Below, in pieces: positions 13,104-64,000 of a stretch of 64,000 bases of DNA; position 1 is the first letter of the stretch; every line of letters begins with the position of its first letter. The notes below the pieces were generated by a model. That model worked only from the letters and a program-made list of their open reading frames with translations. It was not told the origin of the DNA and made no database searches. This DNA is from Nitrospirillum amazonense. Its GTDB lineage: Bacteria; Pseudomonadota; Alphaproteobacteria; Azospirillales; Azospirillaceae. The stretch is from contig NZ_VITR01000004.1 of assembly GCF_007827955.1 (NCBI RefSeq), forward strand, positions 135,099 to 199,098, given 5' to 3'. The translations under genes were made by a program, and so were the position numbers.

Positions 13104-13179
13104 GATCCCGTAGCTCAGCCGGTAGAGCACGTGACTTTTAATCATGGGGTCGTGGGTTCGAATCCCACCGGGATCACCA
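13104..13179 (+). tRNA. tRNA-Lys (anticodon TTT)
   Basis: Cloverleaf read manually. Acceptor gatcccg/cgggatc, D-stem gctc/gagc, anticodon stem cgtga/tcatg with loop cTTTTaa, T-arm gtggg-ttcgaatc-cccac, discriminator a, then CCA encoded. Confidence 0.85.
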
Positions 13180-13400
13180 ATTAAATCAATCCCTTAAATG
13201 GAAATCCCGCCTAATTCGGCGTTGGATGCGCGGCGACATATTGACGCTGCGCGATGTCAGCTGAACGATGTATCGGCCAAACCGATATGGCGTATTGAAT
13301 AATGCGCCTTCCGGCGGACGTTCTTTGCGTCGATTTTCCTCCTCACCAAAATAAAAGACGATCGCCCGCGTGTGGTCGTCAAATGAGGAGGACGTGCTCT

Positions 13401-14297
13401 GTGAAGAACTGGGCGTATGCTGCGGCATTATTGTGCGCTGCTTCGTTTGCAAATATGAACACAGCTCAGGCCACGGAAGGTGGTGGTAACAGTTATCCGC
13501 CCGGCGCCAGCATCTATCTGGCGGGCGCGATGCCACCACCCGGCGAGTATATCCTGTTTCAGCCCAACTACTACACCGCCGGCCAGTTGAATGACGGCAG
13601 TGGTAATAAAATTCCCTTGGACTTCAGCGTCCAATCCGTCTCGCAGACTTTCCGCGGCTTTCTGGTCACGCCCTATCAATTTTTGGGCGCCCAGGTGGCG
13701 ACCCAATTAATCTTGCCCATCGTCGACCTGCATGCCGAGGTGGCGGGGCAAAAGACCAACAAGCTGGGCTTCGGCGACATCGGCTTTTCGCCGGTGCTGC
13801 TGGGCTGGCACCTCGGCCCCAATCTGACCCTGGTCTTTGGGACCGACATCTTCACGCCGGTGGGTCAGTACAACGTCAACTCCTTGGCCAACATCGGGCG
13901 CAACGTCTGGTCCTTCCAGCCGACCTTTGGGTTGGCTTACATCGATCCCCAGGGCTGGCAGGCCCAGATATCGCCCCGCTTCGCGTTCAACACCACCAAT
14001 GATGCCACGCACTACCATTCCGGCGCCGACTTCGACCTGGACTTCGCCGTGGCGCGCAATGTCGGGGGCTGGCGCTTGGGTGTTTCCGGCTACTACTACG
14101 TCCAGTATCAGGACGACACCCAGAACGGACTGACGGTCGATGGCGACGGCCATCGCGGACAAGCCTTCGCCGTCGGGCCGGCCATCAGCCACGACATCGG
14201 TCCGCTGCAGGCGACTTTCACCTGGCAGCATGAGTTCATGGCCGACAACCGCGCCCAGGGCGAGAATCTGTGGATGCAGTTGGGCCTGCGGCTCTGA
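13401..14297 (+). CDS. Putative outer-membrane beta-barrel protein (MetA-pathway/transport-like family); signal peptide predicted
   Basis: GTG start preceded by aaatGAGGAGgac. Signal peptide VKNWAYAAALLCAASFANMNTAQA. Alternating amphipathic beta-strand pattern with Tyr/Gly/Asn-rich sequence. The family assignment is from memory and is tentative. Confidence 0.45.
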   Translation: MKNWAYAAALLCAASFANMNTAQATEGGGNSYPPGASIYLAGAMPPPGEYILFQPNYYTAGQLNDGSGNKIPLDFSVQSVSQTFRGFLVTPYQFLGAQVATQLILPIVDLHAEVAGQKTNKLGFGDIGFSPVLLGWHLGPNLTLVFGTDIFTPVGQYNVNSLANIGRNVWSFQPTFGLAYIDPQGWQAQISPRFAFNTTNDATHYHSGADFDLDFAVARNVGGWRLGVSGYYYVQYQDDTQNGLTVDGDGHRGQAFAVGPAISHDIGPLQATFTWQHEFMADNRAQGENLWMQLGLRL

Positions 14298-14299
14298 TC

Positions 14300-14992
14300 T
14301 CAGAATAGGGTCGTGGCGGCCTGTGGGGCCAGGAGGTCGGCATCGTCGTTGCGCACGTTGCCGACCCTTGGCCCCACGGCCCAGAAGCGGGTCTCATTGG
14401 CGGGGTAGGGGCGCAGCAGGCCCCGCAGGACGGAGGCGTCGGCGTCCGTTTCTCCCAGCCAGGCGGGCCAGTCATCCGGGGCCAGGATCACCGGCATGCG
14501 GTGGTGGATGTGGCCGATGGCATCGTTGGCCGCCGTGGTCAGGATGGTGTAGGTCCGCACCCATTCGCCGCTGGACGGATCCTTCCAGCCTTCCCACAGC
14601 CCGGCGAAGGCCGCCGTGTCATTGTTGGCCGGCGCGATGGCATAGGCTTGCTTGGCGCCATTCTCCGCCCGCCACTCATAGAAAGCGGTGACCGGCACCA
14701 GGCAGCGGCGCCGGGCGAAGGCTTGTCGGAAGGTTGGCTTCTCCGTCACGCTTTCCGACCGCGCGTTGATCATCTTGGCCCCGCCCGCGAGATCCGCCGC
14801 CCACGAGGGCACCAGGCCCCAGCGCAGCAGGTCCAGCCGCCGTTCCCCCGTCTGCGCGTTCCAGCGCACCACCGGCGCCGACTGTGTGGGCGCGATGTTG
14901 AAACGGCCGGGGAAGTTGGGCAGCGCGCCCAGGGTCTGGAACAGCGCCTCCATGGCCTGGGGCGGTGTGACGGCGGCGTAACGACCGCACAT
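14300..14992 (-). CDS. yedK: SOS response-associated peptidase (SRAP/YedK, abasic-site processing protein)
   Basis: Begins MCGRY, with the invariant catalytic Cys2. Conserved ...NARSESV...FYEW... motifs. ATG at 14992; the track extension upstream is ignored. Confidence 0.85.
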   Translation of the reverse strand: MCGRYAAVTPPQAMEALFQTLGALPNFPGRFNIAPTQSAPVVRWNAQTGERRLDLLRWGLVPSWAADLAGGAKMINARSESVTEKPTFRQAFARRRCLVPVTAFYEWRAENGAKQAYAIAPANNDTAAFAGLWEGWKDPSSGEWVRTYTILTTAANDAIGHIHHRMPVILAPDDWPAWLGETDADASVLRGLLRPYPANETRFWAVGPRVGNVRNDDADLLAPQAATTLF

Positions 14993-15096
14993 GGCGGGGA
15001 CAACTCCGGAGCAGGGGCGGGCGCTTGGCGCGGCGGCGCCGTCATGATACCGCTGGGGCACGGCGAATTGCCACGGTTAGTGTCTGGAGTGATGTG

Positions 15097-15816: not shown

Positions 15817-16545
15817 ATGAACAGCTTCGATGGCGCCATCCAGGAATTCCTGACCACCCATGCCTTCACCTCCGACGTGGCGAACCACGCCATCCGCACC
15901 ATCGCCGACTTCTCGTTGTTCAAGGGACTTTTCCCCGTCGCCATCCTCTGGTGGGTGTGGTTTCGAGGGGGCAGGCGCGGGCTGTGGGAGAAGGAAATGG
16001 TCATCGCCACCTTCGTCAGCGGCTTGTCCGCCTTGGCGGTGGGGCGATTGCTGGCCCACTTCCTGCCATTCCGGGAGCGCCCCATCTACGACCCAACGGT
16101 GCCCTTCCACTTCCCCCTGAGCGGCACCAGCGAAAGCATCCTCAGAACCTGGAGTTCGTTCCCCAGTGACCACGCCATGCTGTGGATGGCGGTGTCGACG
16201 GGTATTTTCCTGGTCTGGCGTTGGGTCGGAGCGCTGGCCATGGCCTACACGGCAATCTTCGTGTGTCTGGTACGGGTATATCTGGGGTTGCACTTTCCCA
16301 CGGATGTCATCGGCGGCGCCGTTATTGGCATGCTGATCACCCTTGTCATGACGCGGGACGCCGTCCGCCCGCTTTATACCACCCCTATCCTGCGGGTCAT
16401 GATGCGCTTCCCCGCGCCGTGTTATACGCTTGCATTCCTGTTTTGTTTTGAGTTGGTCACGCAGTTCGATGAGATCCGCATGATCGGCCAGTCCATGCAC
16501 AAGGTGTTGGAGGCCGGGCGCGAGCAGGCATCCCCGTCTTTATAG
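15817..16545 (+). CDS. PAP2-family (phosphatidic acid phosphatase type 2) membrane protein
   Basis: PAP2 motifs SFPSDH...YLGLHFPTDVIGG. ATG at 15817 preceded by GGAGGA. Multiple TM helices. Confidence 0.8.
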   Translation: MNSFDGAIQEFLTTHAFTSDVANHAIRTIADFSLFKGLFPVAILWWVWFRGGRRGLWEKEMVIATFVSGLSALAVGRLLAHFLPFRERPIYDPTVPFHFPLSGTSESILRTWSSFPSDHAMLWMAVSTGIFLVWRWVGALAMAYTAIFVCLVRVYLGLHFPTDVIGGAVIGMLITLVMTRDAVRPLYTTPILRVMMRFPAPCYTLAFLFCFELVTQFDEIRMIGQSMHKVLEAGREQASPSL

Positions 16546-16702
16546 GCTGCCCAGATTGGGACAGCGCCCCGCCGCGATTAGCCCTTGCCCCTCCGTCTTT
16601 GGAGATAGCCCGCCCGCTTCAATTCCATGGCCGTTTCGGAGTCTGTATAAATAACTTTCGTTGTAGGTCTGTGCCCACAATTGTCAGGGACGATCCGGAA
16701 CC

Positions 16703-16978
16703 ATGTCCGATCCTCACGACGATGGCGGGGGTGATCCCCTAGCAACGACGGGACACGCCACGCAGCAGGCTCGCTCGGCCGCCCCCGGCGCTTCCACCCT
16801 TTATACAGCGGCCGACTTGGCGCTGGCTCGGGCCGCTGAGATGCTGCTGGGTCTGCGTGGTACCCGTGCCTATGCCGAGGCATCGCCCGAAGAGCGGCGG
16901 GAGCTGGAATCCTACGTCCTGGATTTGGTGGGCGGACGTTCCACAAGGTTGCTGCAGCTTAAGCTCTTGGCGCCGTGA
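16703..16978 (+). CDS. Small hypothetical protein (91 aa)
   Basis: Open frame with an ATG in a moderately AT-rich intergenic stretch; predicted helical. No SD and a weaker codon bias than neighbours. Could be spurious. Confidence 0.25.
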   Translation: MSDPHDDGGGDPLATTGHATQQARSAAPGASTLYTAADLALARAAEMLLGLRGTRAYAEASPEERRELESYVLDLVGGRSTRLLQLKLLAP

Positions 16979-17578: not shown

Positions 17579-17604
17579 CTGCGCGGCGTCTCATACGCCG
17601 CAGA
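17579..17604. terminator. Hairpin (ctgcGCGGCGT-ctcat-ACGCCGCag) between convergent PilZ and GGDEF/EAL genes
   Basis: 7-9 bp GC-rich inverted repeat spanning the stop of the minus-strand gene. Candidate bidirectional terminator. Confidence 0.35.
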
Positions 17605-18898
17605 ACAACTCGAACTCCTTGACGGGCAGTGGACGGGCGAACAGATAGCCCTGACCCTCCTCCACCCCCATGGCCCGGAGCAGAGAACGCTCCGCTTCCG
17701 TTTCCACACCCTCAGCCACCACCTTCAGGCCCATGGCCTTGGCCATGGCGACGATGGCCTGCACGATATGGCGGGTGCCGATGTCCTGCTCCATGTCCTG
17801 CACGAACTTCCGGTCCACCTTCAGGCAGTCCAGGGGCAGTTCCCGCAGATAGGAGAGGGAGGAGTAACCGGTGCCGAAATCGTCCAGCGCCAGCGCGACA
17901 CCGCAATCGGCGATCCAGGCCATCTGGCGCAGGGCGCCCTCCAGATCCTCGGGCAATACGGACTCGGTGATCTCCAACTGCAGCAAGTGCGGCGGGATGC
18001 CAGTTTCGCGCAGCAGCACGTCAATCAGGGCCGGCAGGTGGCCCCAACGGAATTGACGCTCCGAGACATTGACCGCGATCTGCAGCGGCTGCCGTCCCGC
18101 CTCGATCCACGATTGTATCTGGCGGCAGGCGGCGCGCAGGGCCCATTCGCCGATGGGCACCATCAGGCCCGTCTCCTCGGCGATGGGAATGAATTCCATG
18201 GGATAGACCAAGCCGCGGGTGGGATGCCGCCAGCGGATCAGCGCCTCCCCCCCGATGGGGGTGCCGTCGGTGATGGACACCTTGGGCTGGTAGTGCAGCA
18301 CGAACGCCTCATCGAGGATGGCCTGGCGCAGCTCCGTCTCGGTGATCAGCTGGTGGCGCAGCCGTTCCCGCATCTGCTCGGTATAGTGCAGGTAATGGGC
18401 GGATCCGGACTTGGCCACCTCTCCCTGGGCGATGGCGGCGTTGCGCAGCAGGGCATGGCCGGTGGTGCCATCGTCGGGCGAAACCGCCACGCCGATCTTG
18501 GCCACCATGTACAGCAACCGTCCCTCGACCAGGATGGGTTCGCCAATACGGGCGGCCAGGGCGGATGCGGTGAACAGCGCCTTGCTGGCGTGGCTGAGGT
18601 TGGGAAGGAACAGGGCGAACTGCGCACGGGCGATGCGGCACACCGCGTCACCACTGCCGCACAGCCCCAGCACCCGCTCCGCCATCACCGCCATGGAGGC
18701 GTCCAGCGCCTGCTGGCCCAGCAGCTTGTACAGCTCCGCCATGCGGGAGATTTCGATGACCAGCACGGCGCAGGGGCCGCTGTGACCGGCCAGGTGATCG
18801 TCGATACGGCGGGTGAAAGCGGAAATATCCTGCAGGGCACCGGCACCGGGAGGTGCAGAGTCGGGTCTGGCGACGACGGTCAGGCAGGCATCGGTCAC
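17591..18898 (-). CDS. Degenerate GGDEF plus EAL domain protein (likely c-di-GMP phosphodiesterase)
   Basis: C-terminal EAL domain with EALIRW, DDFGTGYSSL and EGVETEAE motifs. The N-terminal GGDEF-like domain has the GG(D/E)EF site replaced (RIARAQFALFL), so it is probably inactive as a cyclase. Confidence 0.85.
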   Translation of the reverse strand: MTDACLTVVARPDSAPPGAGALQDISAFTRRIDDHLAGHSGPCAVLVIEISRMAELYKLLGQQALDASMAVMAERVLGLCGSGDAVCRIARAQFALFLPNLSHASKALFTASALAARIGEPILVEGRLLYMVAKIGVAVSPDDGTTGHALLRNAAIAQGEVAKSGSAHYLHYTEQMRERLRHQLITETELRQAILDEAFVLHYQPKVSITDGTPIGGEALIRWRHPTRGLVYPMEFIPIAEETGLMVPIGEWALRAACRQIQSWIEAGRQPLQIAVNVSERQFRWGHLPALIDVLLRETGIPPHLLQLEITESVLPEDLEGALRQMAWIADCGVALALDDFGTGYSSLSYLRELPLDCLKVDRKFVQDMEQDIGTRHIVQAIVAMAKAMGLKVVAEGVETEAERSLLRAMGVEEGQGYLFARPLPVKEFELFCGV

Positions 18899-19127: not shown

Positions 19128-19970
19128 TTGAGTTTCGCCCTGTCCAAGATTTTCTGGACGCTGACGGCGCCCGGCAACCTGTTGCTTTTGTTTTTGTTGG
19201 TCGGACTTTTTGCAACCGGGGGCTTCAGGGCGCGGCGTTCCTTGCGTTGTGCCCGCGCCGCGGCCCTGGGCTTTCTCATCGTCGCCGTGCTGCCCGTGGG
19301 CGCCTGGAGCATGCGCGCGCTGGAACAGCGCTTCCCGGCCCCCGCCGCGCTGCCCGATCATGTCGACGGCATCATCGTTCTGGGCGGGTCGGTGGACCAG
19401 GTGGCCACCGCCGAGACCGGGCAGCCGGAGGTGAATGCCGCCGCCGAGCGCCTGATGGTCATTCCGGAACTGGCGCGGCGCTATCCGGACGCCCGCATCG
19501 TTTTTTCCGGGGGGTCGGGAGAATTGCGCGACCCCGACGAGAAGGAGGCGCCGGTGGCCCGCGCCGCGCTGGAAGAAATGGGTATGGACATCGGGCGCGT
19601 CACGTTCGAGGGGCAGTCGCGCAATACCTGGGAGAACGCGCTGTTCAGTCGCGACCTGATGCGGCCGCAACCGGGGCAGACCTGGCTGCTGGTCACATCG
19701 GCCTTCCACATGCCCCGGTCCATGGGCATTTTCCGCCATGTCGGCTGGCCGGTGATCGCCTATCCGGTGGACATCCGGGCGCCCCGCACCTTGCTGTACC
19801 GGCCGGATTTCGACCTGTTGCGCGGTCTGGAACTGCTGTCGCAATCGGTGCATGAGTATGTCGGGCTGGTGGCCTATCGCCTGCTGGGCCGCACCGACAG
19901 CCTGTTCCCCGGCCCGGACCTTCCTGCCACCGGCGGCCCAGGCCCTGGCGCTGCCACTAAAACGCCCTGA
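19128..19970 (+). CDS. YdcF/ElyC (DUF218) family protein
   Basis: IIVLGGSVD...RIVFSGG...TWENALFSRDLM...LLVTSAFHMPRS is the DUF218 core. N-terminal TM. The track start is TTG. Confidence 0.7.
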   Translation: MSFALSKIFWTLTAPGNLLLLFLLVGLFATGGFRARRSLRCARAAALGFLIVAVLPVGAWSMRALEQRFPAPAALPDHVDGIIVLGGSVDQVATAETGQPEVNAAAERLMVIPELARRYPDARIVFSGGSGELRDPDEKEAPVARAALEEMGMDIGRVTFEGQSRNTWENALFSRDLMRPQPGQTWLLVTSAFHMPRSMGIFRHVGWPVIAYPVDIRAPRTLLYRPDFDLLRGLELLSQSVHEYVGLVAYRLLGRTDSLFPGPDLPATGGPGPGAATKTP

Positions 19971-52049: not shown

Positions 52050-54866
52050 TCAGAAAGTACGCTGCCGCACCTCCAGGATGCCGCGGATCTTGGCCGCCAG
52101 CTCGTCCATGGCGAACGGCTTCATCACCATGTCCATGCCCTCATCCAGGAAATCGCCGCGTACGGCGGCATTGGCGGCATAGCCGGTAACGAACAACACC
52201 GGCAGATCCGGCCGCCGCCGCCGCGCGATCTCCGCCAGCTGCCGTCCGTTCAGGCCGGGCAGGCCCACATCGGTGATCAGCAGGTCGATCTGGCTGGACG
52301 ATTCGATGACGCTCAAGGCGCCGCGTCCATCGGCGGCGTGAAGCGCCGTGTAGCCCAGCTCCTGCAACACATCCAGGACCAGCAGGCGGACGGACTCGTC
52401 GTCCTCCACCACCAGCACGATCTCCCCCGCCCCTTCCGGCGTCTCCCCCATGCCGGCCATGCCGGCCTCATGGGCGTCGTCCCCGCCATCACAGGGCAGG
52501 TACAGGGTGATGGCCGTGCCGCGCCACATCTCACTGTCGATGCGCACGTGGCCGCCCGTCTGCTTGACGAAGCCGTAGATCATGGAGAGCCCCAGGCCGG
52601 TTCCCTGGCCGATGGGCTTGGTGGTGAAGAAGGGATCGAAGGCCTTGGCGACCACATCCGGGGGCATGCCCATGCCGGTGTCGCTGACCCGGATCATGAT
52701 GTAGTCCCCTGCCGTCAGCCCGTCATGGCGGGCGGCGTAGGCCCGGTCCAGCGTGGCCCTCCCCGTCTCTATGGTCAGGATGCCGCCGTCCGGCATGGCA
52801 TCGCGGGCGTTGATGGCCAGGTTCAGGATGGCGCTTTCCAACTGGTTCGCGTCACTGCGCGCCGCCACCAGGTTTTCCGCCATGCCGACGCGCAGCTCAA
52901 TCTGTTCGCCCAAGGTGCGGCGCAGCAGATCCTCCATGGATCGCACCAGGCCATTGACGTCGATGGGCTTCGGGTCCAGCGATTGCTGGCGGGAGAACGC
53001 CAGCAGGCGATGGGTCAAGGCCGCCGCCCGCTGGGCGGAGGCCATGGACGCGTCCATGAACCGGTCCAGGTCGCTCAGCCGCCCTTGGGAAATGCGGCGG
53101 CGCACGATATCCAGGCCGCCGATGACCCCCATCAGCATGTTGTTGAAGTCGTGGGCCAAGCCGCCTGTCAGTTGGCCCACGGCCTCCATCTTCTGGGCCT
53201 GGCGCAGCTGTTCCTCGGTCTGGCGCAAGGTGTCGGCGCGCTGCTTGTCCTCGGTGATGTCGCGACCATAGGCGTAAACCAGGTCGCCCTCCTTCGAGGT
53301 GTTCCAGGAAACCCACCGTAAGCTGCCGTCCTTGTGCAGCAGGCGGTTCTCGAAATTGGTCAGGTTCTGGTCATGGATGGCGCCGCTCAGCGCGTCCTCC
53401 GTGACGGCAAGATCCTCGGGATGAACGAAGCCCTGCACCTGCCGGCCCTTCACCTCATCCACGTCGTATCCCAGGATGGCCGTCCAGGAGGGGCTGGCCG
53501 ACCGGCAGACGCCATCGGCGCCGATGATCACCAGCAGGTCGCGGGAGTTGTTCCAGACGCGGTCGCGTTCCCGCGTCCGCTCCTCCACCCGCGCCTCCAG
53601 CGTCTCCGCGAACTGGCGCAGCTTCTCCTCCGCATCCTTGGACGCGGTGATGTCGTAAATGACGCCGATGAATCGGCTACCTGGGCCTTGGCGGCCATCG
53701 CGATCCCGCTGGCCATCGCGCCGGTGCTCACCCCGCTGGGCCAGCCAACGGACCTCCCCGGTATCGGGGCGCCGGACGCGGAATTCACGATACGGCGGCG
53801 CCGTCTCCCCGCTGTCCATGCTGGTGATCAGCGGGGCATCGTCGGGATGGACCACGGCGTTGACGGTGCGCACCGGCAACGCCGTGGTGGGGTGCAGGCC
53901 CAGCAAAAGACAGAACTGTTCCGATACCGAAACGGTGCCGAAGCCGCTGATGTACTCGAACGTTCCCACACCGCCGGCGGTTTGCGCGACGCGCAACTGC
54001 TCTTCGACCCGCTTCTGCTCGGTGACATCAGCCAGCACGCCGCGGAACCGGCAAGCCGTCCCATCGGCCAGACGGTCGGCGCTGCCGCGGGCGGAAACCC
54101 AGTGGACCGCGCCATCGCGGCCCACCACGCGATAATCCTTGGCGAAAACGTCGGCGCCATGCATCACCCCGGCCACGGCGATGCGGATGCGCATGCGGTC
54201 ATCGGTGTGGATGGAATCGAAAAAGGCGTCGGTGGGCAGCCCGTTGCCGGCCTCCACCGGATCCAAACCGTACAACTCGGCGAAACGGGCATCCGCATAC
54301 AATCGCCCGCTGGCCACGTCCCATTCCCAGGCCCCGGCTGTGCCCCCGACCACCTGGGCCAGGCGCGCCCGTTCCTTGGCGTCGGCCAGGGCCTGCCGGC
54401 TGGCCGTAAGTTCCGCCTCCACCTCCAGCCGGGCCAGTTCCAGGGTCTGGTCGGAATGGGTCCAAAGGACGTAAGGCGCGATACCCTGCGCGTCCAGCAC
54501 TGGAGTCAGACGTACGCGATCCCAGAACACGCTGCCGTCCCGGCGCACCACCCTCAGGTCCGCGGTCAAGGCCCGGCAGGCGGCCAAGGCCTGTTCGATG
54601 CCCGACAGGACGGCGGGATCGGCATCGGCGGCGGCAAGGAAACCGAAGGGGCGGCCGGCCAGATCACCGGCCGCATGGCCGGTCAGACGCTCGAACGCCG
54701 GGTTGGCGAAAACCAGGGGCTCGCCCGGACGGCGATGGTCGGTGATGGTCAGGGCCATGCCGGATTGCACCAGCGTGTCCAGCAGCGGGCCGCATAAGGC
54801 GCGCAGTTCCGTTGGCACGCTGCCCTCACGCTCCATCATGACCAATGCCTCCGCTCGGCCACTCAT
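52050..54866 (-). CDS. Multi-PAS hybrid sensor histidine kinase/response regulator (CheS-like output kinase)
   Basis: Four or more PAS/PAC repeats, HisKA (LAHDFNNMLMGVIGGLDI), HATPase_c (GTGLGLSMIYGF) and a C-terminal REC (LVVEDDESVRLLVLDVLQELGY...DVGLPGLNGRQLA). Confidence 0.85.
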   Translation of the reverse strand: MSGRAEALVMMEREGSVPTELRALCGPLLDTLVQSGMALTITDHRRPGEPLVFANPAFERLTGHAAGDLAGRPFGFLAAADADPAVLSGIEQALAACRALTADLRVVRRDGSVFWDRVRLTPVLDAQGIAPYVLWTHSDQTLELARLEVEAELTASRQALADAKERARLAQVVGGTAGAWEWDVASGRLYADARFAELYGLDPVEAGNGLPTDAFFDSIHTDDRMRIRIAVAGVMHGADVFAKDYRVVGRDGAVHWVSARGSADRLADGTACRFRGVLADVTEQKRVEEQLRVAQTAGGVGTFEYISGFGTVSVSEQFCLLLGLHPTTALPVRTVNAVVHPDDAPLITSMDSGETAPPYREFRVRRPDTGEVRWLAQRGEHRRDGQRDRDGRQGPGSRFIGVIYDITASKDAEEKLRQFAETLEARVEERTRERDRVWNNSRDLLVIIGADGVCRSASPSWTAILGYDVDEVKGRQVQGFVHPEDLAVTEDALSGAIHDQNLTNFENRLLHKDGSLRWVSWNTSKEGDLVYAYGRDITEDKQRADTLRQTEEQLRQAQKMEAVGQLTGGLAHDFNNMLMGVIGGLDIVRRRISQGRLSDLDRFMDASMASAQRAAALTHRLLAFSRQQSLDPKPIDVNGLVRSMEDLLRRTLGEQIELRVGMAENLVAARSDANQLESAILNLAINARDAMPDGGILTIETGRATLDRAYAARHDGLTAGDYIMIRVSDTGMGMPPDVVAKAFDPFFTTKPIGQGTGLGLSMIYGFVKQTGGHVRIDSEMWRGTAITLYLPCDGGDDAHEAGMAGMGETPEGAGEIVLVVEDDESVRLLVLDVLQELGYTALHAADGRGALSVIESSSQIDLLITDVGLPGLNGRQLAEIARRRRPDLPVLFVTGYAANAAVRGDFLDEGMDMVMKPFAMDELAAKIRGILEVRQRTF

Positions 54867-54902: not shown

Positions 54903-55550
54903 TCAGCCGGCATTGCCATCCGTTCCCACCACCCGCGTGATGAATTCACTAATCAATTCTTTCAGGGACTGCAGCGATGGCAGGTCCATCAGCATGGCAA
55001 TGTAGCCGCGAATGTCACGGCCGCTGATGGCGAAATTTATGTACAGGAACAGGACAACGCCATTGTCGTCCGGCCTGTCGGACAGTTCGAACAGAATCTG
55101 ACCATCGCCGCGCAAGACCTGGGGCAGCGACATGGCCAGGGGCCGTTGCAGCATGTTGGCCATGGTGGCCAGGCAGCCGTTGAGAACGACGTTACCCGTT
55201 TCGGCCAGCGCCTCCTCCTCGATGTCCAACATCTCGGTCCCCGACAGCTCGTCATGGGTGACGGCGCGGACCAGTTCCAGGCTGTTGGTCTCGGGGAAAA
55301 TCAGCAGCGCGCGGCCGCTGAACGCCCCCGCGAAGTCCTGACGCACGGCGATCAACGGGTCGCTTTCCCGCTCCCGGATCAGGGTGGCCGCCACCCGGCG
55401 CCCCACCACTTCCACCGACGGCACCGATAGGATGACCGGACTGCCCACCATCTTGCGCAAGGCGACTGCCGCGCGGCTGACCCCGATATTGACCAGTTCG
55501 GTCAGCGCGTCATTTTCCAACTCATCCAGGGCTTGGGGATTATGGGTCAT
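54903..55550 (-). CDS. CheC/CheX-family chemotaxis phosphatase-like protein
   Basis: Two copies of the CheC D/ExxxExxN motif (DALTELVN...; EALAETGN...). Start overlaps the stop of the upstream REC gene. Confidence 0.65.
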   Translation of the reverse strand: MTHNPQALDELENDALTELVNIGVSRAAVALRKMVGSPVILSVPSVEVVGRRVAATLIRERESDPLIAVRQDFAGAFSGRALLIFPETNSLELVRAVTHDELSGTEMLDIEEEALAETGNVVLNGCLATMANMLQRPLAMSLPQVLRGDGQILFELSDRPDDNGVVLFLYINFAISGRDIRGYIAMLMDLPSLQSLKELISEFITRVVGTDGNAG

Positions 55551-55939
55551 CCATGCACCGCGCGCAGCTTCAGCGCTGCGCCGGCAACGAAATCGCGAAT
55601 GCCGTCCTCGGTGATGGGTTTGCTGACGAAGGTGGCGTTGGCCGCGCGGGCACGGGCCACCACTTCATCCTGAACATTGGCGGTGGCCAACGCGATCGGC
55701 ATGTCTGGATAACGGTGCCGCAGCTGTTCAGCCAATTCCAGACCGTTACGGCCCGGCATGTTGAAGTCCAGGACGGCCAGATCCACCCGCCTGTCCTGTA
55801 GGGTGGCCAAGGCCTCGTCGGCATTGCCCGCCTCTACCTTGGTCCATGTGGGTTGCAGCGCCGCCAAAGCCTTACCGACAACGATGCGCGCTAGTTTGCT
55901 GTCATCGACGATTAAGACCGTAGTACCCATGTCAACCAT
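55547..55939 (-). CDS. Single-domain response regulator (CheY-like)
   Basis: VLIVDDS...DLAVLDFNMPGRNGLELAEQL...SKP receiver-domain signature (Asp pocket, phospho-Asp, T/S and K). Confidence 0.8.
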   Translation of the reverse strand: MVDMGTTVLIVDDSKLARIVVGKALAALQPTWTKVEAGNADEALATLQDRRVDLAVLDFNMPGRNGLELAEQLRHRYPDMPIALATANVQDEVVARARAANATFVSKPITEDGIRDFVAGAALKLRAVHG

Positions 55940-56055
55940 CCTGCCAAACTCATCCAATCCGCCATTTTATGCCCCCCGGCAGATATCGGTCTTTTCGTTG
56001 GACGCCGGTGGTTCAGTATGTATATCGCGGCCTCAATAATCTTGTCTGCGAAAGA

Positions 56056-56298
56056 CTATGGCGGTGCAGCCAAACAGGGTATGACCCAGTCGCGGAGAAA
56101 TACATCCTCGGCCATACCCCGTACAGTTGGCCGCAAAGCGAGAAAAACTTGCACCACGGCACCATGCAGATGGCGGCTGGCGCTGACGTCGATTTGGGAC
56201 TCGGGCGCCTCCTGCAGCCGGGAGAGCAAAATTTCCGCGTCCTCCGCGCCGCAGTTCCCCGCCAAGCGTATGAGGGGGCCGTCCACGATGATCGTCAT
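56056..56298 (-). CDS. Small hypothetical protein (80 aa) translationally coupled to cheA
   Basis: ATGA overlap with the cheA stop. Sequence MTIIVDGPLIRLAGNCGAEDAEILLSRLQE... is vaguely STAS/anti-sigma-antagonist-like. It could also be a spurious read-on frame. Confidence 0.3.
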   Translation of the reverse strand: MTIIVDGPLIRLAGNCGAEDAEILLSRLQEAPESQIDVSASRHLHGAVVQVFLALRPTVRGMAEDVFLRDWVIPCLAAPP

Positions 56299-58313
56299 GG
56301 CCGTCCCCCACCCAGCCTGTCCCCGTCACGGTGCAAGGCGGCGATCAGGCCCGGCAGGTCCAACACCATCAGCAGCCCGCCGTCCCCCAGGAGGGTGGTG
56401 CCCAACAACCCCGGCATGGCGGCCAACAACCCGGCCATGGGACGCAGCACCACGTCATGCCGCCCCAGGAAGGTACCAACCTCCACCGCCAGCAACGCAC
56501 CATCCACCCGCACGATGACCGCCCGCACGGCCTCCCCTTCCCTGACATCGTCGGCCGGCTGGTCGAGCAGATCGGACAGCGCCAGGAGGGGAACCGCCGT
56601 GTCGCGCAGAACGAAGGCGCGCCCCGCACGGATGGGCAGGACGCGGTCGCGGGTGACGCGCACGGTCTCGATCACGCCGTCCAAGGGCAGGCCGTAGCGA
56701 TCATCGCCTACGGAAACGACCAGCACCTTGGTCAGCACCAAATTCATGGGCAGGGTCAGCCGCACCGTCGTTCCCGCGCCTACTGTGCTCCGCAGTCCCA
56801 CGCCGCCGCCTAGGCGGCCCACAGCGGCGCGGACGGCGTCCATTCCCACCCCGCGCCCCGACAGGACGGTCACCGCCTCCGCTGTGGAAAAGCCTGGGCG
56901 GAACACCAGGTCCAGCACCTGGTCATCGGGCAGTTCGGCCAGCGTGGCCGCTGGCACCACGCCCCGGGCCGCCGCGGTCCGCCGGATACGGTCCGGATCC
57001 ATGCCACGCCCGTCGTCCGTGACCTCGATGACCATGCGGTCGCCTTCCCGCCCCACGGTCAGGCCAATGCGGGCCCGTTCGGGCTTACCCGCCGCGACCC
57101 GCTCCGCCGCCGGCTCGACGCCGTGGTCGACGGCATTGCGCAGCAGATGGGTCAGCGGTTCGAACAACCCCTCCACGATCCCCTTGTCGGCCTGCACCTC
57201 CTGGCCATCCACAACCAGGTCGGCCTCCTTGCCGATGGCGGCGGCCATCTCACGCACCATGCGGGGGAAACGGCGCAAAAGGGGCAGGACGGGCACGAGG
57301 CGGATGTCCGTGACAGTGCGATGCAGCCGGCCGATCAGCCGGTCAAGCATCGCCTGGCGATCGCCCATGATCCGGGCCGCCACGTCCGGGGCCAGGCCAT
57401 CCGCCATACGGGCCGCCAGGTCCGCCAAGGCGTTCTTGGCGACCACCAACTCGTCCACCAACGCCACCAGGGTGTCGACGCGGCTGGCGTCCACGCGCAG
57501 CCCGCGTGGGCCTTCCAATCCTGTCGGGGACGGGCCGATGGACGGTCCTGGGGAGGGGGGCGACCAACTCAGCACCTGGATCTGGTCGGGCATGAAGCGG
57601 AAGGGGACCTTGACCGCCTCCACAGGGGCGGCGGACAGCAGCTCAACCACCAAATCGCAGGCATAGGGATCGTAGGCGTCCGACGCCGGTGGGGCATCGG
57701 GCCGGCGGAAAACCCGAAAGGCCAGCAGATCGGGCACCGCGCGGGCCAGGGCGATGGGATCCTCTCCGCGGAAATAACACCCCGCATCCGGCGTGTAGCG
57801 CAACGCCGTCACGACAGAATGGCGCGCCGCATCCGACGCCTGTTCCCGAAAGAGGCTCTCGACCCAATGAGTGTCCGAGAGGGCGGCCTCGACCCGGCCG
57901 TTGTCGGCCCCGGCAACTGGCGTCCCCGGGACCAGGAAGCCGCGTAAGCGCTGCGACAGGGCACGCGCCACGTCGCCCGCGTCGTCGGGAAGCGCCCCCC
58001 CTGTCACCCTCAGGGCGTCCAGCCAGCGTTCCGTCTGGCCGGTGGCGGCAATCAGGACATCCGTGGCCGCCCGGGATAAGGTCAGGCGGCCGTCCCGCCG
58101 CGCGCCCAGCAGGTCCTCGGCGACATGCAGCACCTCGGCCATCGCCGGCAGGTCGAACAGGCCCACCGACCCCTTCAGGGTATGGATGGCGCGGAAGGCC
58201 TGGTCGACCAGGGCGGCATCTTCTGGCCGCGCCTCCAGCGCCAGCAGGGCCTCACCCGCCTGCTGCACCTGTTCCGGCCCCTCGATGAGGAATTGCTCCA
58301 GCAGTTCATCCAT
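56295..58313 (-). CDS. cheA: Chemotaxis histidine kinase CheA
   Basis: Hpt (HTLKGSVGLFDL), dimerization/HATPase_c (G1/G2 boxes GRGVGMD), and a C-terminal CheW-like domain. Overlaps cheR by 8 nt. Confidence 0.9.
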   Translation of the reverse strand: MDELLEQFLIEGPEQVQQAGEALLALEARPEDAALVDQAFRAIHTLKGSVGLFDLPAMAEVLHVAEDLLGARRDGRLTLSRAATDVLIAATGQTERWLDALRVTGGALPDDAGDVARALSQRLRGFLVPGTPVAGADNGRVEAALSDTHWVESLFREQASDAARHSVVTALRYTPDAGCYFRGEDPIALARAVPDLLAFRVFRRPDAPPASDAYDPYACDLVVELLSAAPVEAVKVPFRFMPDQIQVLSWSPPSPGPSIGPSPTGLEGPRGLRVDASRVDTLVALVDELVVAKNALADLAARMADGLAPDVAARIMGDRQAMLDRLIGRLHRTVTDIRLVPVLPLLRRFPRMVREMAAAIGKEADLVVDGQEVQADKGIVEGLFEPLTHLLRNAVDHGVEPAAERVAAGKPERARIGLTVGREGDRMVIEVTDDGRGMDPDRIRRTAAARGVVPAATLAELPDDQVLDLVFRPGFSTAEAVTVLSGRGVGMDAVRAAVGRLGGGVGLRSTVGAGTTVRLTLPMNLVLTKVLVVSVGDDRYGLPLDGVIETVRVTRDRVLPIRAGRAFVLRDTAVPLLALSDLLDQPADDVREGEAVRAVIVRVDGALLAVEVGTFLGRHDVVLRPMAGLLAAMPGLLGTTLLGDGGLLMVLDLPGLIAALHRDGDRLGGGRP

Positions 58314-59214
58314 GGGCGGCGGTTCCCTGCGCGCGGTTCGGTTGCACGCCTTCCCGGGGCCGCTGATAGACCACCGCGTCCTCGAAGCGGCAGACGGCGA
58401 AGCGGTCGCTCAACCGCGCCAGGGATTCCGAATGCCCCAAGCAGAGGTAACCGCCCGGCAGCAGCCGGTCATAAAGGTTGTCCACCGCCAGGCGGCGGGA
58501 CAGATCGTCGAAATAAATCAGCAGGTTGCGGCAAAAAATGACGTCGAAGCGGCCTTGCGCCGTCAATGTCGCCCCATCCACCAGGTTGGCGCTGGTGAAG
58601 GTCACGGATTCCCGCAGATCCTGGATGATCTGAAAACGCTCCGCCCCGCTCCCCTCGACCGGCAGGAAATAATCCTGGCGCAGCTCCACCGGCAGACGCG
58701 CCAGCGATTTGGCGGCATAGCGGCCCGCCCTCGCCTCCGCCAGGGCGCGGGTGTCGATGTCCGACGCCACGATCTCCACATGATAGGCGTCGACCATGGC
58801 CCAGTTCTCCAGCAACCAGATGGCGATGGAATAGGGCTCCTCCCCCGTGGCGCAGGGCATGGACCAGAGACGCAGCCGGTCACCCGGCCCCCGCCGGGAT
58901 ACGATGTCCGGCAGCATGTCGCGGCTGAGGCACTTCAACTGATGGTCTTCGCGGTAGAAATAGGTCTCGTTGACGGTGAAGCTGTTGATCAGGTGTTCCA
59001 ATTCCACCGGATCGGCGCGCAGCCGGGTGAAATAATCCTCGAAGGTCGCGGCCCCCATCTCGGCCATGCGCTGCGCCACCCGCCGATCGATGTAGTACCG
59101 CTTGCTTTCCCCGAACTGCATACCGGTGCGCAGGTACAGGAACTCGCAGAAGCGGGCGAGATCCGGCGCGCTCAGCGGCGGCGTTTCTCCATCGTCGGCG
59201 CGGCGGACGGTCAT
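58306..59214 (-). CDS. cheR: Chemotaxis protein methyltransferase CheR
   Basis: All-helical N-domain, then SAM-binding domain (LRLWSMPCATGEEPYSIAIWL). Confidence 0.9.
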   Translation of the reverse strand: MTVRRADDGETPPLSAPDLARFCEFLYLRTGMQFGESKRYYIDRRVAQRMAEMGAATFEDYFTRLRADPVELEHLINSFTVNETYFYREDHQLKCLSRDMLPDIVSRRGPGDRLRLWSMPCATGEEPYSIAIWLLENWAMVDAYHVEIVASDIDTRALAEARAGRYAAKSLARLPVELRQDYFLPVEGSGAERFQIIQDLRESVTFTSANLVDGATLTAQGRFDVIFCRNLLIYFDDLSRRLAVDNLYDRLLPGGYLCLGHSESLARLSDRFAVCRFEDAVVYQRPREGVQPNRAQGTAAHG

Positions 59215-60326
59215 GGTCCCACCAGGTCGCGCAGATGGAACGCGATCTTGTCCAGCGGCGCCACGACATCGGCGCCGCCCGCCTTGACCAGTTCCCCCGG
59301 CATGCCCCAGACCACGGCCGTCTCCTCGGCCTCGGCGATGGTGCGTCCCCGCCGCGCGCGCAGCCGGGTCATCGCCGCCGCGCCGTCATAGCCCATGCCG
59401 GTCATGAGCACGCCAACCAGCCGGCGCGCGTCGACATGATCCAGGGCGCTGTCGACCAGCCGGTCGACGCTGGGATGCCAGCGGTATTCCTCCTTGGATG
59501 GGGTGGGCATCACCACCAGGCCCGAGGAGCGCCGGCTCAGGATCACGTCGGCGTCGCCCTTGCCGATGTAGACATGGCCAGGAGCCAGAGGGACAGGCCG
59601 CGTCACCTCCCGCACCGTGAGCGGGCATAGCCGGTCCAGTCGGCGGGCCAGCGCGCCGGTGAAGGTGGCCGGCATGTGCTGCGCCACCACCACCGGCCAC
59701 GGGAAATCGGCCGGCAGCCCGTCCAGCAAAGCATCCAGGGCGGGCGGCCCACCGGTGGAACAGCCGACCAGGACCAAGCCCGGCGGATCCCCCGGCTTGC
59801 CGGCTGGACGCGGGTCGTCCAGCGGATCGGCCTCCTCCAGCACGGGAGGGCGCCTGGCAGCCTCGACAGCCGGGGTATCCCACCCCTGCGCTTGGCGGCG
59901 CAGGCGTTCCACCAGGCGGTGGGACCGGCGCAACCGCGCGCGCGCCGCCCCCCGCACCTTGTCCAGCAGTTCCGGCCCCAACCGGTCCATCTTCAGCGAA
60001 ATCGCGCCATCGGGCTTCTGGATGAAGTCCACCGCCCCCAGCGTCATGGCCTCCAGTGTCACCTCCGCGCCGGCTTCGGTGAGGGATGAAACCATCACCA
60101 CCGGCCGGGGCCGCTCCACCATGATCTGGTCCAGGCAGGAGAGGCCGTCCATCTGCGGCATGTGAACGTCCAGAGTGATGACCTCCGGGTCGAAGTCGCG
60201 CAGCCGCGCCAAAGCCTCCAGGCCGTCGCGGGCGGTGGCGACCTCGAAGTCGCCCGCGGCGGCGAACAGGTCGCCCAACAGCCGGCGCATCAGGGCGCTG
60301 TCATCGACGATCAGGACGCGGGTCAC
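59211..60326 (-). CDS. cheB: Chemotaxis response regulator protein-glutamate methylesterase CheB
   Basis: REC (VLIVDDSALMRRLL...ITLDVHMPQMDG), then methylesterase domain (catalytic Ser/His/Asp context: GMGYDGA, VVAQHMPATFT). GTG start overlaps the cheW stop. Confidence 0.9.
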   Translation of the reverse strand: MTRVLIVDDSALMRRLLGDLFAAAGDFEVATARDGLEALARLRDFDPEVITLDVHMPQMDGLSCLDQIMVERPRPVVMVSSLTEAGAEVTLEAMTLGAVDFIQKPDGAISLKMDRLGPELLDKVRGAARARLRRSHRLVERLRRQAQGWDTPAVEAARRPPVLEEADPLDDPRPAGKPGDPPGLVLVGCSTGGPPALDALLDGLPADFPWPVVVAQHMPATFTGALARRLDRLCPLTVREVTRPVPLAPGHVYIGKGDADVILSRRSSGLVVMPTPSKEEYRWHPSVDRLVDSALDHVDARRLVGVLMTGMGYDGAAAMTRLRARRGRTIAEAEETAVVWGMPGELVKAGGADVVAPLDKIAFHLRDLVGP

Positions 60327-61858
60327 GGCGGCGCCGATCCGGGGTCGCCAACGCCCCCCTGCGGCGCCCTGCCCAGTGCCGCCAACAGGTCACGCTCCGT
60401 CCGGCTGAGCAAGGCCCGCGGCTCGATCAGCAGGATCATGCGGTCAGCGCCGTCGGGGGTGCGCAGGGTGGCGACGCGGGTGAAGAGTGTCTCCCCCCCG
60501 TCCGCCGCGCGGGCCAGATCCGGCGTTTCACGCGTCTGATCGGCGGACAGGGTCAGTATCTCCGACACGCCATCGACGGCGAAGCCCGCCAGCGTGCCGT
60601 CGATGCGCGTGACCATCACCCGGCGCCGCGACCCGGCAGCCCCGGCCACACCGAAGCGGCGGCGCTGGTCGATGATGGGCAGGACCTGACCGCGAAGGGT
60701 CATGGCCCCCTCAATGAAAGGGGGCGCCTTGGGAACGCGGGTCAGGGTGTCGGGCAGGCGCACAACTTCCGCCACCGCGTCGACGGGCAAGCCATATTCC
60801 TCGCCCCCTACGTGGAAGACGACGACGCGGTCAGCCGCCGCATCGGGGTTGACTGCGTCCATGACGGAACTCCCTTCCTCGCCATCCTCGGCGGCCCCCT
60901 GTGCCAGAAGATGGGCCACCGTCTCATGCCGGAACAGCCGTGCGGCGGACAGGATGGAAACCAGGCCGCGACCGTCGGGCAGGCGGCAGAGGGACTGGAT
61001 CTGCGCCTCGCCCCGGCCACGGTTCAAGACGGCCGGCACGGCGGCGACGCTGTCGGCGGGGACCCGCAAGATGGTGGTCAGGCGGTCCACCAGCAAGCCC
61101 AAGTGGCCCCCAGGACCATGGGCCACGACCACACGGGCGCCACGGCCTTCATCCGCACCACCTTCCAGGCCAAGAAGGACGCGGGCGCTGACGATGGGCA
61201 GAAGGCGCCCGCGATGCGAAACGGTCCCGACCATCGCCGCGTCACTGCCGGGCAGGTAGGCCAGATGGTCCGGCACGGTGATGGCCTCCGCCACCTCCGC
61301 CAGCGGCAGGGCGTAGCTCTGCCCCGCCAGGGCGAAGGCCAAGAAGGCCCGTTCATCGACGGCGGCGCGGTCCTGGTGCCCAACGGATCGCGCGCCGCTA
61401 TTGCCCCGGCGCGTCCGCGCGGCCAAACCGGCAAAGGCCCGCCGCAGCAGCTCTTTCAGGTCGATCAGGCGCGCAGCGCCGTCCCCGTCGGTATACAGGG
61501 CGCCATCAGGGCCGGGGCCGGCGGTATCCAGGTCGGCCAGCGTGCCAACCTCATCGACCGCCAAGGCCACAGGTTCACCAGCGTCGAACAGCAGGATACG
61601 GCCGCCCTCGGGGGCCGCCCCCTCATCCCCCTCCAGCAGGCGGGCCAGGGAAATCACCGGCACAACGGCTCCGCGCACGGTCGCTATCCCCATCAGGCAG
61701 GCGGGGGCATGCGGCACGCGGGTGATGGGCGGCGGGCGCAGCACCTCCGTCACCGCACCGGCGGGGGCCGCCAGCCGGGTGGCGCCCACGCGAAAGGTGA
61801 GAACCCGCGGCGGTCCCCCTGCCTGAGTGGCCCTCCCCCGGGAGGATGGTGTGCTCAT
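60323..61858 (-). CDS. cheW: Scaffold protein with three tandem CheW domains
   Basis: Three repeats of the CheW pattern ([14 protein letters not shown]...[16 protein letters not shown]; [17 protein letters not shown]...MVGTVSHRG; [18 protein letters not shown]...IEGAMTLRG). Confidence 0.8.
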
Positions 61859-63831
61859 CCCCCGACCTTCTGGAGTTCGCCCTTCTGGAGTTCATCTGCC
61901 AGCGACGCGATCTCCTCAATGGCGGCGGCCAGATCCTCGGCCCCGCGCGACTGCTGCCGCGCGGCGGTGGCGGCCTGCATCGCAGCCCCGCCGGCCAGTT
62001 CCGCCGCGGCTGCGATCTGTTGCACTCCACTCAGCACCTGGCCCACCGTCGCGCCGATGGCGTCGGCGCCCTGGGCGATCTCGGTGCCCAGCGCGTGAAG
62101 CTCCTGGGCGGAACCGGCGATTCCCCCCAGCCGCACATCGATATCCTTGTTCTTATGCACCTCCGCCTCCGCCACGGCGGCGATGTGCTCCAGATCGCGC
62201 CGCACTGTGGCGACCTGAAGCTGAAACTGGCGGATCAGATCCTTGGCGCGGTCGGCGTTCTCCCCGGAGTCGCGAGCCAGGGCGCGGATGTCGGTGGAGA
62301 CGACGGCGAAGCCCGCCCCCTGGTCGCCCACGCGCGCTGCCTCGACCGAGCCGCTGACGGCCAGCATCGTGGTCTGCACGGCCACGATGGCGATGCCGTC
62401 GACGATCTTTTCCATACGCCGGCCGGACTCTTCCAGCGTGTCCACCAGATCCACCACGGCGCGGGTCTCCGCCAGCGCGGCCCCGACCCCGGCGGTGAGT
62501 TTGCCAACACCCACCCGCCCTTCGGCCAGCAAGACCTGCGACCGCGCCATGCGCTCCACCACCTGGGTGGCGTTGGCGCTGGTGGCCTGGGCCGCCTGGT
62601 GAATCTGCCCCATGGCACTGCTGGATTGCTGGGTGGACGCCGCCTGGATCTGGGCGCCGCGGCTGATCTGGTTGATGGTGATCAGGATTTCACCGGCGGC
62701 GCCGGATAACTGTTGCACCGCCGCCGACAACTGTTCCGCCGCGGCCCCAACCTCCTCCGCCAGGCTGGCGCGCTGGCGGGCGTCGCCCAGGCCGTCCGAA
62801 AGGGCGGCCAGGGCCTCCGCCGCCTCCCGGCTCTGGTCCAGCGCCTGGCTTTGCTGCGCCACAGAGCGTTGGGCCTCGGCCGCCGCGGCCGACTGCTCCT
62901 CCGCCGCGCTGGAGACGCTTTCGGCCCCCTTCTGCGCCTCACGCGCGGCGGTATCCGCCTCCACCGCCGCCAGCAGGATGGCTTGGGCGCCCGAGACCAG
63001 CGCCGCCAGTCCGGCGCGGATATCCTCCAGCAAGATGGAAACAGCCCGGCCTTCCGCCGCTTCGGCCGTGGCCGTCGCGGCGGCGGCGCGGATGCGGGCG
63101 GCGATGGCGCGCACCTCCTCGGTGATGCCGTCGGCCAGGGACTGCACGTCGCGGGACCGTTTCTCCGATGTTTCAGACAGGGCCCGCACCTCGTCCGCCA
63201 CAACAGCGAATCCCCGGCCCAGGTCCCCCGCCCGCGCCGCCTCGATGGCGGCGTTCAGGGCCAGCAAACCGGTCTGGTCGGCGATGTCGGCCACCGTGCG
63301 GGTGATCTCGCCAATATGGGCGGCGTGCAACTCCAGGCCCACGACGATATCAACCGACTTGAGCTGGCGAGCGGCGTTTGCGGTGACCGCACTCACCGAC
63401 GCCTCGATCAGGGCGGCCGCCTCCGTCAGCTGGGTCTGCAAGGCCACGGTGCGCACCTGCGCCCGCTCCGCCCGCTCCCGCGCCTGCTGGAAAGAGGTCG
63501 CCATGCCGGCCACGGCGGCCAAGGATTCATGGCTGGCGGAGGCCGCCTCCTCCGCCGCGCTGGCGATCTGTTCCAGCGACCGGCCCAGTTCCTCCGCCGC
63601 GGCGGCCGCTTCCGCCACGCCGCTGGCCAGTTCCGCCGTGGCGGCGGCGATGCGTTCCGACGCCGTCTGGCGGGTTGTCGGCGGCGCGGCGCGGCGCGGG
63701 CGCTTGGCCGGCGCGTTGGGCTGGGCCGTGGCCGCCTTGGAAGGCCCCGCCGGTGCCGCGGCCGCTTCTGCGGCCAATGCGCGGGAGCGCCCCTTGGCGC
63801 CGGCCAGCCGGGAGGTTTTTACCAATGCCAT
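61855..63831 (-). CDS. Soluble methyl-accepting chemotaxis protein with two signalling (MA) hairpin tips
   Basis: No TM or sensor domain. Two copies of the invariant MCP tip: [35 protein letters not shown] and [35 protein letters not shown]. Ala/Gln/Glu-rich heptad arms. ATG at 63831 (the track start at 63843 is TTG). Confidence 0.85.
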
Positions 63832-64000
63832 GTGTGCCCCCAAATCGGCCCCTGACCAGCGGCCCCCTGTGCCGCCAAGACCCTTGCGGCGCCGGATCTG
63901 GTTTTACAGGCGCCGCGCTTGCCTCGGCAATCGACGTAATGCCATAGGCTATACGGCAGGCGGGTCGGCGCGGACAGAGGAATAGAGGGGCCGAAAAATG

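Follow-up and report, generated by a model that had tools for sequence, protein, structure and literature searches.

A receptor gene with two signalling domains

The window analysed here, a stretch of 64,000 nucleotides (nt) from Nitrospirillum amazonense (contig NZ_VITR01000004.1, positions 135,099 to 199,098), carries close to its right-hand end the gene of a soluble chemoreceptor, which is very likely the orthologue of DosM and the first gene of a complete operon of chemosensory class F9, where it would serve as a double-tipped scaffold of the receptor array. The open reading frame (ORF) at 61855..63843 on the minus strand is present in the ORF list of the window. Its start was placed at the ATG at 63831, because an N-terminus reading MALVK is common to the homologues, and a TTG start at 63843 was rejected in favour of it. 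This yields 658 amino acids (aa) and a stop codon, in agreement with the coordinates 61855-63831 of a preliminary description made from the sequence. The gene and the parts of its product are as follows, where MCP stands for methyl-accepting chemotaxis protein and pLDDT for the predicted local distance difference test.

61855..63831, minus strand: dosM-type receptor gene, 658 aa plus stop, with two MCPsignal stretches and the N-terminus MALVKT
63664..63831, minus strand: N-terminal residues 1-56, the MALVK motif followed by an Ala/Pro/basic linker (pLDDT <50 at residues 1-19 and 25-52)
62791..63663, minus strand: first signalling hairpin, residues 57-347 (Pfam, 84.5 bits; phmmer match to 2CH7; helix in the AlphaFold2 model; length of TM1143)
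63208..63243, minus strand: tip 1 motif, residues 197-208 (12 residues, letters not shown), a canonical MCP hairpin tip
62782..62790, minus strand: hinge L348-G349-D350 between the hairpins, non-helical in the AlphaFold2 model
61861..62781, minus strand: second signalling hairpin, residues 351-657 (Pfam, 76.8 bits; phmmer matches to 3JA6 and 2CH7; helix in the AlphaFold2 model; about the length of TM1143)
62308..62343, minus strand: tip 2 motif, residues 497-508 (12 residues, letters not shown), within a family-specific tip-2 signature (MLAV.G...DIR)

The Pfam family MCPsignal matches the receptor in two separate stretches (E 2.5e-42), and when the halves were scanned singly residues 1-347 reached 84.5 bits and residues 348-658 reached 76.8 bits, each well over the Pfam gathering score (34.6 bits). 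A single match, which the preliminary description had named as the outcome that would speak against a double tip, did not arise. Comparison of residues 1-340 with residues 341-658 by BLASTP gave 30% identity over 227 aa with an E of 2e-13, so that the internal repeat is far beyond chance. The two tips had been described as homologous and about 320 residues apart; the homology stands, and the spacing has to be corrected, as the motifs begin at residues 197 and 497 and are thus separated by exactly 300 residues. A six-frame scan of the window revealed no further MCP tip besides these two.

The protein had also been called soluble and devoid of a ligand-binding domain, and Pfam at E<=0.01 indeed returned no family other than MCPsignal, with no sensor or ligand-binding domain among the matches. 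No convincing membrane segment was seen by hydropathy (top 19-residue Kyte-Doolittle mean of 1.69; a dedicated transmembrane predictor was not run), and the most hydrophobic 19-residue stretch is an Ala/Leu-rich helix that also holds E, D and R.

Each half is a complete receptor hairpin

An AlphaFold2 model built on 43 homologues (mean pLDDT of 90.9, predicted template modelling score (pTM) of 0.70) comprises helices at residues 57-347 and 351-657, interrupted by the 3-residue break L348-G349-D350, and has low confidence at residues 1-52, where the linker of about 50 residues that follows the N-terminal peptide is probably disordered. The break coincides with a conserved feature, since in 348 homologues with a tip spacing of 300 residues four consecutive positions of the hinge are occupied by G, P, N, S, D or T in 76-95% of cases. 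One half of the receptor model superposes on chain 2CH7_B of Thermotoga maritima TM1143 with a TM-score of 0.90 and a root mean square deviation (r.m.s.d.) of 2.0 Å over 297 columns. In phmmer searches residues 58-340 of the query align with residues 18-300 of the 2CH7 chain (283 residues), and residues 10-294 of the second half align with residues 16-293 of the same chain (about 280 residues). The full-length alignment and the superposition on TM1143 thus identify each half as a complete receptor hairpin of TM1143 size, and bear out the earlier proposals of a tandem duplication of the whole signalling domain and of two hairpins in one chain.

TM1143 (2CH7, 3JA6) is a membrane receptor which we take to belong to heptad class 44H, and by their likeness to it both signalling domains of the modelled receptor would agree with this class. 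The F9 class is associated with 44H receptors (PMC9321776, supplementary material); VC1403 of Vibrio cholerae is given as class 44H.

Two tips conserved separately in a large family

An exhaustive HMMER search of 1.84 billion representatives gave 323 cluster representatives at E<=1e-30, many of them 630-660 aa long and covering the whole query, at identities down to 28%. Of the 474 proteins retrieved, 380 carry two tips, and in 348 of these the tips are exactly 300 residues apart; nearly all two-tip homologues end 154-159 residues after tip 2. Eight [EQ][EQ] pairs, beginning at residues 94, 311, 312, 359, 366, 373, 401 and 626 and thus represented in both halves, are kept in 80-96% of 347 homologues and sit in an Ala/Ser/Thr/Gly context typical for methylation sites.

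The two tips differ from each other consistently. At offsets -8, -5, -3, +17 and +18 from EAAR, tip 1 carries L, L, A, E and V and tip 2 carries M, V, G, D and I. Each of these residues is 91-100% conserved among the 380 homologues, and two more offsets show V/I swaps that are 82-97% conserved. The resulting signatures are a 29-letter pattern for tip 1 (letters not shown) and QT.MLAV.G..EAARAG..G.GF.VV..DIR for tip 2. From these separately conserved signatures we infer that the duplication is old and that the tip ends are not interchangeable in sequence. Among the 43 homologues, residues Q486, T487, M489, L490, G494, E497-R500, G502, G505, G507, F508, D514, I515 and R516 of tip 2 are invariant.

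At the N-terminus, 262 of 381 two-tip homologues begin at residue 1 with M[AS][LIVM][LIVM][KR] (MALVK[KT]), followed by a variable extension of ~44 aa; speculatively, this peptide on its linker may be a tethering motif. The homologues also share a conserved C-terminal stretch (14 letters, not shown). Four retrieved proteins of ~746 aa (P0218, P0226, P0245 and P0254) are rare DosM variants with tips 402-403 residues apart; the one that was scanned, P0218, has a chemoreceptor zinc-binding (CZB) domain between its two signalling domains, and these variants may belong to the small sensor-bearing minority of DosM homologues. In a further protein of 1051 aa (P0139), DosM is joined to part of a CheA, which may reflect an error of gene calling.

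The gene cluster downstream of the receptor

The receptor gene is followed on the same strand by cheW3, cheB, cheR, cheA, a gene for a small protein, cheY and cheX, and then by the gene of a hybrid kinase with PAS domains.

60323..61858, minus strand: cheW3, triple-CheW scaffold of 511 aa (three CheW stretches, E 7.4e-76), the first 4 nt being shared with the end of dosM
59211..60326, minus strand: cheB, receiver and methylesterase domains (Pfam)
58306..59214, minus strand: cheR, methyltransferase (Pfam)
56295..58313, minus strand: cheA, with Hpt, dimerisation, HATPase and CheW-like domains (Pfam)
56056..56298, minus strand: small protein of 80 aa, shown as '.' when the gene order is written as a string in the literature (weak STAS_2 match, E 0.0021, under the Pfam cut-off)
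55547..55957, minus strand: cheY-like single-domain response regulator (Response_reg, E 1.2e-21), given with a mechanically chosen TTG start, the true start being uncertain
54903..55550, minus strand: phosphatase of the cheX/cheC type (CheX, E 2.3e-9)
52050..54866, minus strand: hybrid histidine kinase of 938 aa (Pfam: four PAS_3, HisKA, HATPase_c and a C-terminal Response_reg)

The preliminary description had placed a triple-CheW scaffold next to the receptor, and the ORF at 60323-61858 does hold three CheW stretches, as repeats that span roughly residues 18-136, 173-319 and 341-495. Overlaps of 4-8 nt join dosM to cheW3, cheW3 to cheB, cheB to cheR, cheR to cheA, cheA to the small ORF and cheY to cheX, which suggests translational coupling; the sole gap on the minus strand within 54903-63831 is one of ~98 nt between the small ORF and cheY. 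The hybrid kinase gene starts 36 nt downstream of cheX and is probably an extra member of this cluster subtype, BRA.YX in the notation of gene-order strings. A promoter and terminator scan of 51-64 kb gave background counts, with one promoter-like site against 1.1 expected, and the same scan upstream of dosM found nothing in the 169 nt that are left before the window ends.

Elsewhere the window holds the usual housekeeping genes of a chromosome, among them uvrA, ssb, gyrA, metG, tmk and holB. Its sole tRNA gene, for tRNA-Lys (anticodon ttt; 13104-13179, plus strand), is followed by stretches with a G+C content of 55-60% (13000-14000 and 16000-16750) against about 67%. Near it lie genes for an SRAP peptidase (14300-15061) and a GGDEF-EAL protein (17591-18898), and the stretches of lower G+C could be a small island at the tRNA gene.

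Membership of the F9 class

An entry of Nitrospirillum pindoramense, WP_145730840.1, has the same sequence as the receptor (100% identity), and other proteins from Nitrospirillum and the Azospirillaceae match it at 73-80%. More distantly, the receptor aligns over residues 1-649 with WP_014776894.1 of Thiocystis violascens (P0388 among our homologues) at 45% identity (E 1e-107), and this is the protein named DosM in the S6 Table of PMC9321776. The F9 chemosensory class was defined by Wuichet and Zhulin in 2010 (definition as quoted in PMC9321776), and no other class has the architectures of DosM, with its tandem signalling domains, and of the triple CheW (Mo et al. 2022, PLoS Genet, PMC9321776). 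Both are found here: the receptor has tandem MCP signalling domains, no sensory domain that we could find, an adjoining triple CheW and full-length homology to a published DosM, and the architectures MCPsignal:MCPsignal and CheW:CheW:CheW, the signature of F9, lie in one cluster with cheA, cheB, cheR and cheY. In addition, the order M-W3-B-R-A-small-Y-X in the window equals the catalogued F9 variant [DosMW3BRA.YX], which is given for Nitrospirillum amazonense CBAmC and also for Methylobacterium terrae, Novosphingobium, Sphingobium and others (S6 Table, PMC9321776).

CheA, CheB, CheR and CheW3 point in the same direction when compared with one genome, that of Thiocystis, pairwise identity serving as a proxy: each is closer to the F9 copy than to the copy in a neighbouring non-F9 cluster. 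The CheA kinase core is 42.5% identical to the F9 copy and 32% to the non-F9 copy, with corresponding values of 50.7 and 37.8% for CheB and of 49.3 and 34.9% for CheR, and CheW3 matches its F9 counterpart in Thiocystis at 36.5% identity over 515 aa. A neighbourhood beginning with dosM, cheW3 and cheB recurs in two Acidobacteriota, in Bradyrhizobium, Microvirga, Caulobacter, Aureimonas and Methylobacterium, in metagenome-assembled genomes of Azospirillaceae, and in Thiocystis. A scan of genome contigs with generic MCP tip patterns returned mostly ordinary receptors, with receptors of the DosM type only at loci L001-L003. A profile search with low-alanine representatives gave no Vibrio entry among the top 120 matches, and a search with the Thiorhodococcus homologue gave none among the matches listed. 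WP_088873301.1 of N. amazonense was not found among the cluster members of P0001-P0004, and a chemotaxis paper on Bradyrhizobium diazoefficiens makes no mention of DosM.

The receptor had been called unusual, and this is fair as to frequency, with full F9 clusters in 64 of 2,781 species, or about 2% (PMC9321776). It does not hold as novelty, for the double-tip architecture is already known: it has been named and catalogued, with the genus Nitrospirillum already listed, and 98% of DosM homologues are without a sensor domain or transmembrane region (PMC9321776).

Two cluster subtypes among relatives

Two subtypes were recognised among F9 clusters, that of the window (W3-B-R-A-small-Y-X) and another (W3-B-HEAT-R-Y-A-small-(ParA-like)-Y-short MCP). 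Six loci of the window subtype were examined, namely the window itself, L003, L081, L082, L084 and L085, and in all six a multi-PAS hybrid kinase of ~900-940 aa with a C-terminal receiver lies directly downstream of cheX. By BLAST the kinase of the window is orthologous, at 48-56% identity, to the copies of Bradyrhizobium, Microvirga and Caulobacter (L003, L081 and L082, three of the five related loci); for Aureimonas and Azospirillaceae (L084 and L085) the likeness is one of position and domain architecture. No second receptor gene was found in the clusters of this subtype that were examined.

The small protein of 80-90 aa directly after cheA, the unannotated '.' gene of the gene-order strings, is kept in both subtypes and across phyla, including Acidobacteria, and corresponds to V. 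cholerae VC1396, labelled 'hypothetical'. Homologues occupy this place after cheA at the loci below, and the copy in L086 also has a weak STAS_2 match.

L081, 17357-17614: small-protein homologue
L082, 17109-17357: small-protein homologue
L083, 19627-19899: small-protein homologue
L001, ~19211-19390: small-protein homologue
L086, 19065-19310: small-protein homologue

Alphaproteobacterial F9 clusters with the order B.RYA contain in addition a gene for a ParA/MipZ-like ATPase (L086, 19322-20083; L087, 19710-20534), which is absent from the subtype of the window. The gene recalls the partitioning ATPase of Rhodobacter, which positions cytoplasmic chemoreceptor clusters.

A receptor that would span two baseplates

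The review PMC7534058 describes the F9 array of V. cholerae, summarising the cryo-tomography of Briegel et al. (2016, PNAS), as purely cytoplasmic, double-layered and 35 nm high, with two baseplates of CheA and triple CheW that lie 35 nm apart and are spanned by DosM. In the same review DosM has the form of an extended rod that bears a signalling domain at either end; it is present in every second trimer of dimers and is indispensable to the array. The chain of the window receptor consists of the N-terminal peptide, the linker and two antiparallel coiled-coil hairpins joined by the 3-residue hinge, each hairpin ending in a conserved kinase-control tip, and by analogy it would form a homodimeric rod with one tip at either end. 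Each tip may insert into a separate baseplate of CheA and triple CheW, and in this way the rod would staple two opposed hexagonal receptor layers together into a flat, purely cytoplasmic sandwich array. The atypical array geometry that the preliminary description had suggested from the triple CheW agrees, by this analogy, with the double-layered array published for V. cholerae cluster I/F9 (PMC7534058). DosM would then be mainly a scaffold rather than a sensor, and signal input would have to come from other proteins. The CheR and CheB of the operon probably modify the receptor, because both halves keep Glu/Gln pairs in the context of methylation sites.

Several points weigh against this picture. 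The rod geometry is borrowed from V. cholerae, and the link to VC1403 runs through the Thiocystis DosM. At 0.15 nm per residue and with arms of ~150 residues, a hairpin would measure about 22 nm and two of them about 44 nm, as against an array of 35 nm; the values can be reconciled only by tips that are sunk into the baseplates. In the window protein, tip 2 is off the family consensus at two positions, with Val501 for Ala and Ala506 for Lys/Arg. A pTM of 0.70 suggests a defined mutual packing of the halves, and since the model is of a monomer this packing could be a fold-back. Finally, a second receptor is needed by the V. cholerae array (PMC7534058) and is missing from the subtype of the window.

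The packing of the halves leads to an alternative that we consider improbable, in which the chain is a single-chain pseudo-dimer with hairpin 2 folded back on hairpin 1 so as to mimic a receptor homodimer. In that arrangement the two non-identical tips would sit next to each other at a single end, with trimer contacts falling to one of them and the binding of CheA and CheW to the other, and the molecule, at ~22 nm, would not span two baseplates. The conserved non-helical hinge of three to four Gly or polar residues would suit such a fold, a pTM of 0.70 for a chain of 658 residues suggests confident packing between the halves in the model, and the consistent way in which the tips differ from each other would be naturally explained. 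Foldseek does not discriminate between the extended and the fold-back form, its r.m.s.d. values for long alignments being 48-121 Å. However, a fold-back is a common artefact in monomer predictions of obligate coiled-coil dimers, and the V. cholerae cryo-tomography, as summarised in PMC7534058, shows an extended rod at every other trimer position that is needed for the two-layer array.

The departures of tip 2 from the canonical sequence (QTT for QTN, VSGS for LNAA, ARVG for ARAG, GAGF for GRGF and STDIR for ADEVR), together with the slightly lower Pfam score of the second half (76.8 against 84.5 bits), might instead mark the second signalling domain as a decayed copy that acts as a coiled-coil spacer only and binds neither CheA nor CheW. 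This is more improbable still, as tip 2 is under strong purifying selection, with many residues invariant in the 43 homologues and its signature 82-100% conserved in 380, and methylation-type sites are kept in the second half. An assembly or frameshift artefact that fused two adjacent receptor genes is effectively refuted and was rejected: the identical protein stands in an independent NCBI record, the 380 two-tip homologues come from many phyla and 348 of them have the same spacing of exactly 300 residues, and the G+C content at third codon positions (GC3) is 0.86 along the single frame of the receptor. The double-tipped DosM scaffold of an F9 operon is therefore the reading that we retain as very likely.

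Possible inputs and outputs of the array

The architecture was recognised with the F9 class in 2010, imaged in V. cholerae in 2016 and surveyed in 2,781 genomes, Nitrospirillum included, in 2022. It has been rediscovered here from raw sequence, and the side observations are modest leads on F9 input and output. The tip differences, the MALVK motif and the PAS kinase that trails the cluster subtype are undescribed in the F9 literature covered by our limited search.

We regard it as rather unlikely, if worth stating, that the alphaproteobacterial DosM-W3-B-R-A-small-Y-X subtype is a distinct functional version of the F9 system in which these features have the following roles. The PAS kinase, perhaps jointly with the small STAS-like protein, could supply the array with its missing input or output; in that case a DosM-only sandwich array would be coupled to a two-component phosphorelay and not to the flagellar motor. 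As for the conserved tip signatures, their divergence could reflect two baseplates, or two faces of each trimer, that are not equivalent. The MALVK peptide on its flexible linker of ~44 residues could be a tether for CheR or CheB at the middle of the rod, by analogy with the C-terminal pentapeptide of Escherichia coli receptors. Nitrospirillum fixes nitrogen and is associated with plants, and its F9 subtype could be a convenient system for studying F9 sensing and control, because it has no companion receptor and a conserved PAS hybrid kinase.

Comparison with known systems

Among the closest published systems is the F9 cluster of N. amazonense CBAmC, which belongs to the same genus and has the same gene-order string and signature proteins as the window; the window protein is 80% identical to another Nitrospirillum homologue. 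The CBAmC cluster comes from a different strain or species (the window protein matches the N. pindoramense record), and its published string ends at X without the PAS kinase.

In V. cholerae, DosM (VC1403) has, like the window receptor, two MCP signalling domains in one soluble chain and no sensor domain, and dosM lies directly upstream of the concatenated triple CheW (VC1402), which is followed by cheB, cheR and cheA, as in the window. The two receptors are likened by description, with the Thiocystis DosM as the bridge in sequence; VC1403 is of class 44H, as the window receptor would be too. The full order in V. cholerae, DosM-W3-B-.-R-Y-A-.-Y-M, includes a HEAT-like gene (as in Thiocystis), has one more CheY ahead of CheA and closes with a short companion MCP, whereas the window has DosM-W3-B-R-A-.-Y-X, then the PAS hybrid kinase, and no companion MCP. 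The DosM of Thiocystis violascens has the tip spacing of 300 residues seen in the window receptor and is 45% identical to it end to end; the CheW3, CheB, CheR and CheA of its F9 cluster are probably orthologous to those of the window, and the small protein after cheA is kept. The Thiocystis cluster is nevertheless of the B.RYA.YM subtype, with a HEAT protein, a CheA of 902 aa and a companion MCP of 422 aa.

The Che2 system of Rhodospirillum centenum, a close relative, with its MCP2 and tripartite CheW2, is an F9 system like that of the window and is listed as [DosMW3B.RYA] (PMC9321776). It differs from the window in its B.RYA order, in a CheA that is fused to a receiver according to the genome paper, and in its genetic link to flagellum biosynthesis. 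The genome paper reports the tripartite CheW in Che2, and cells with a deletion of mcp2 that are hyperflagellated and still chemotactic; Che2 controls flagellum biosynthesis and not taxis. In contrast to all of these DosM-type proteins, TM1143 of T. maritima has a single signalling domain where the window receptor has two, each half of which has the same length and fold as TM1143.

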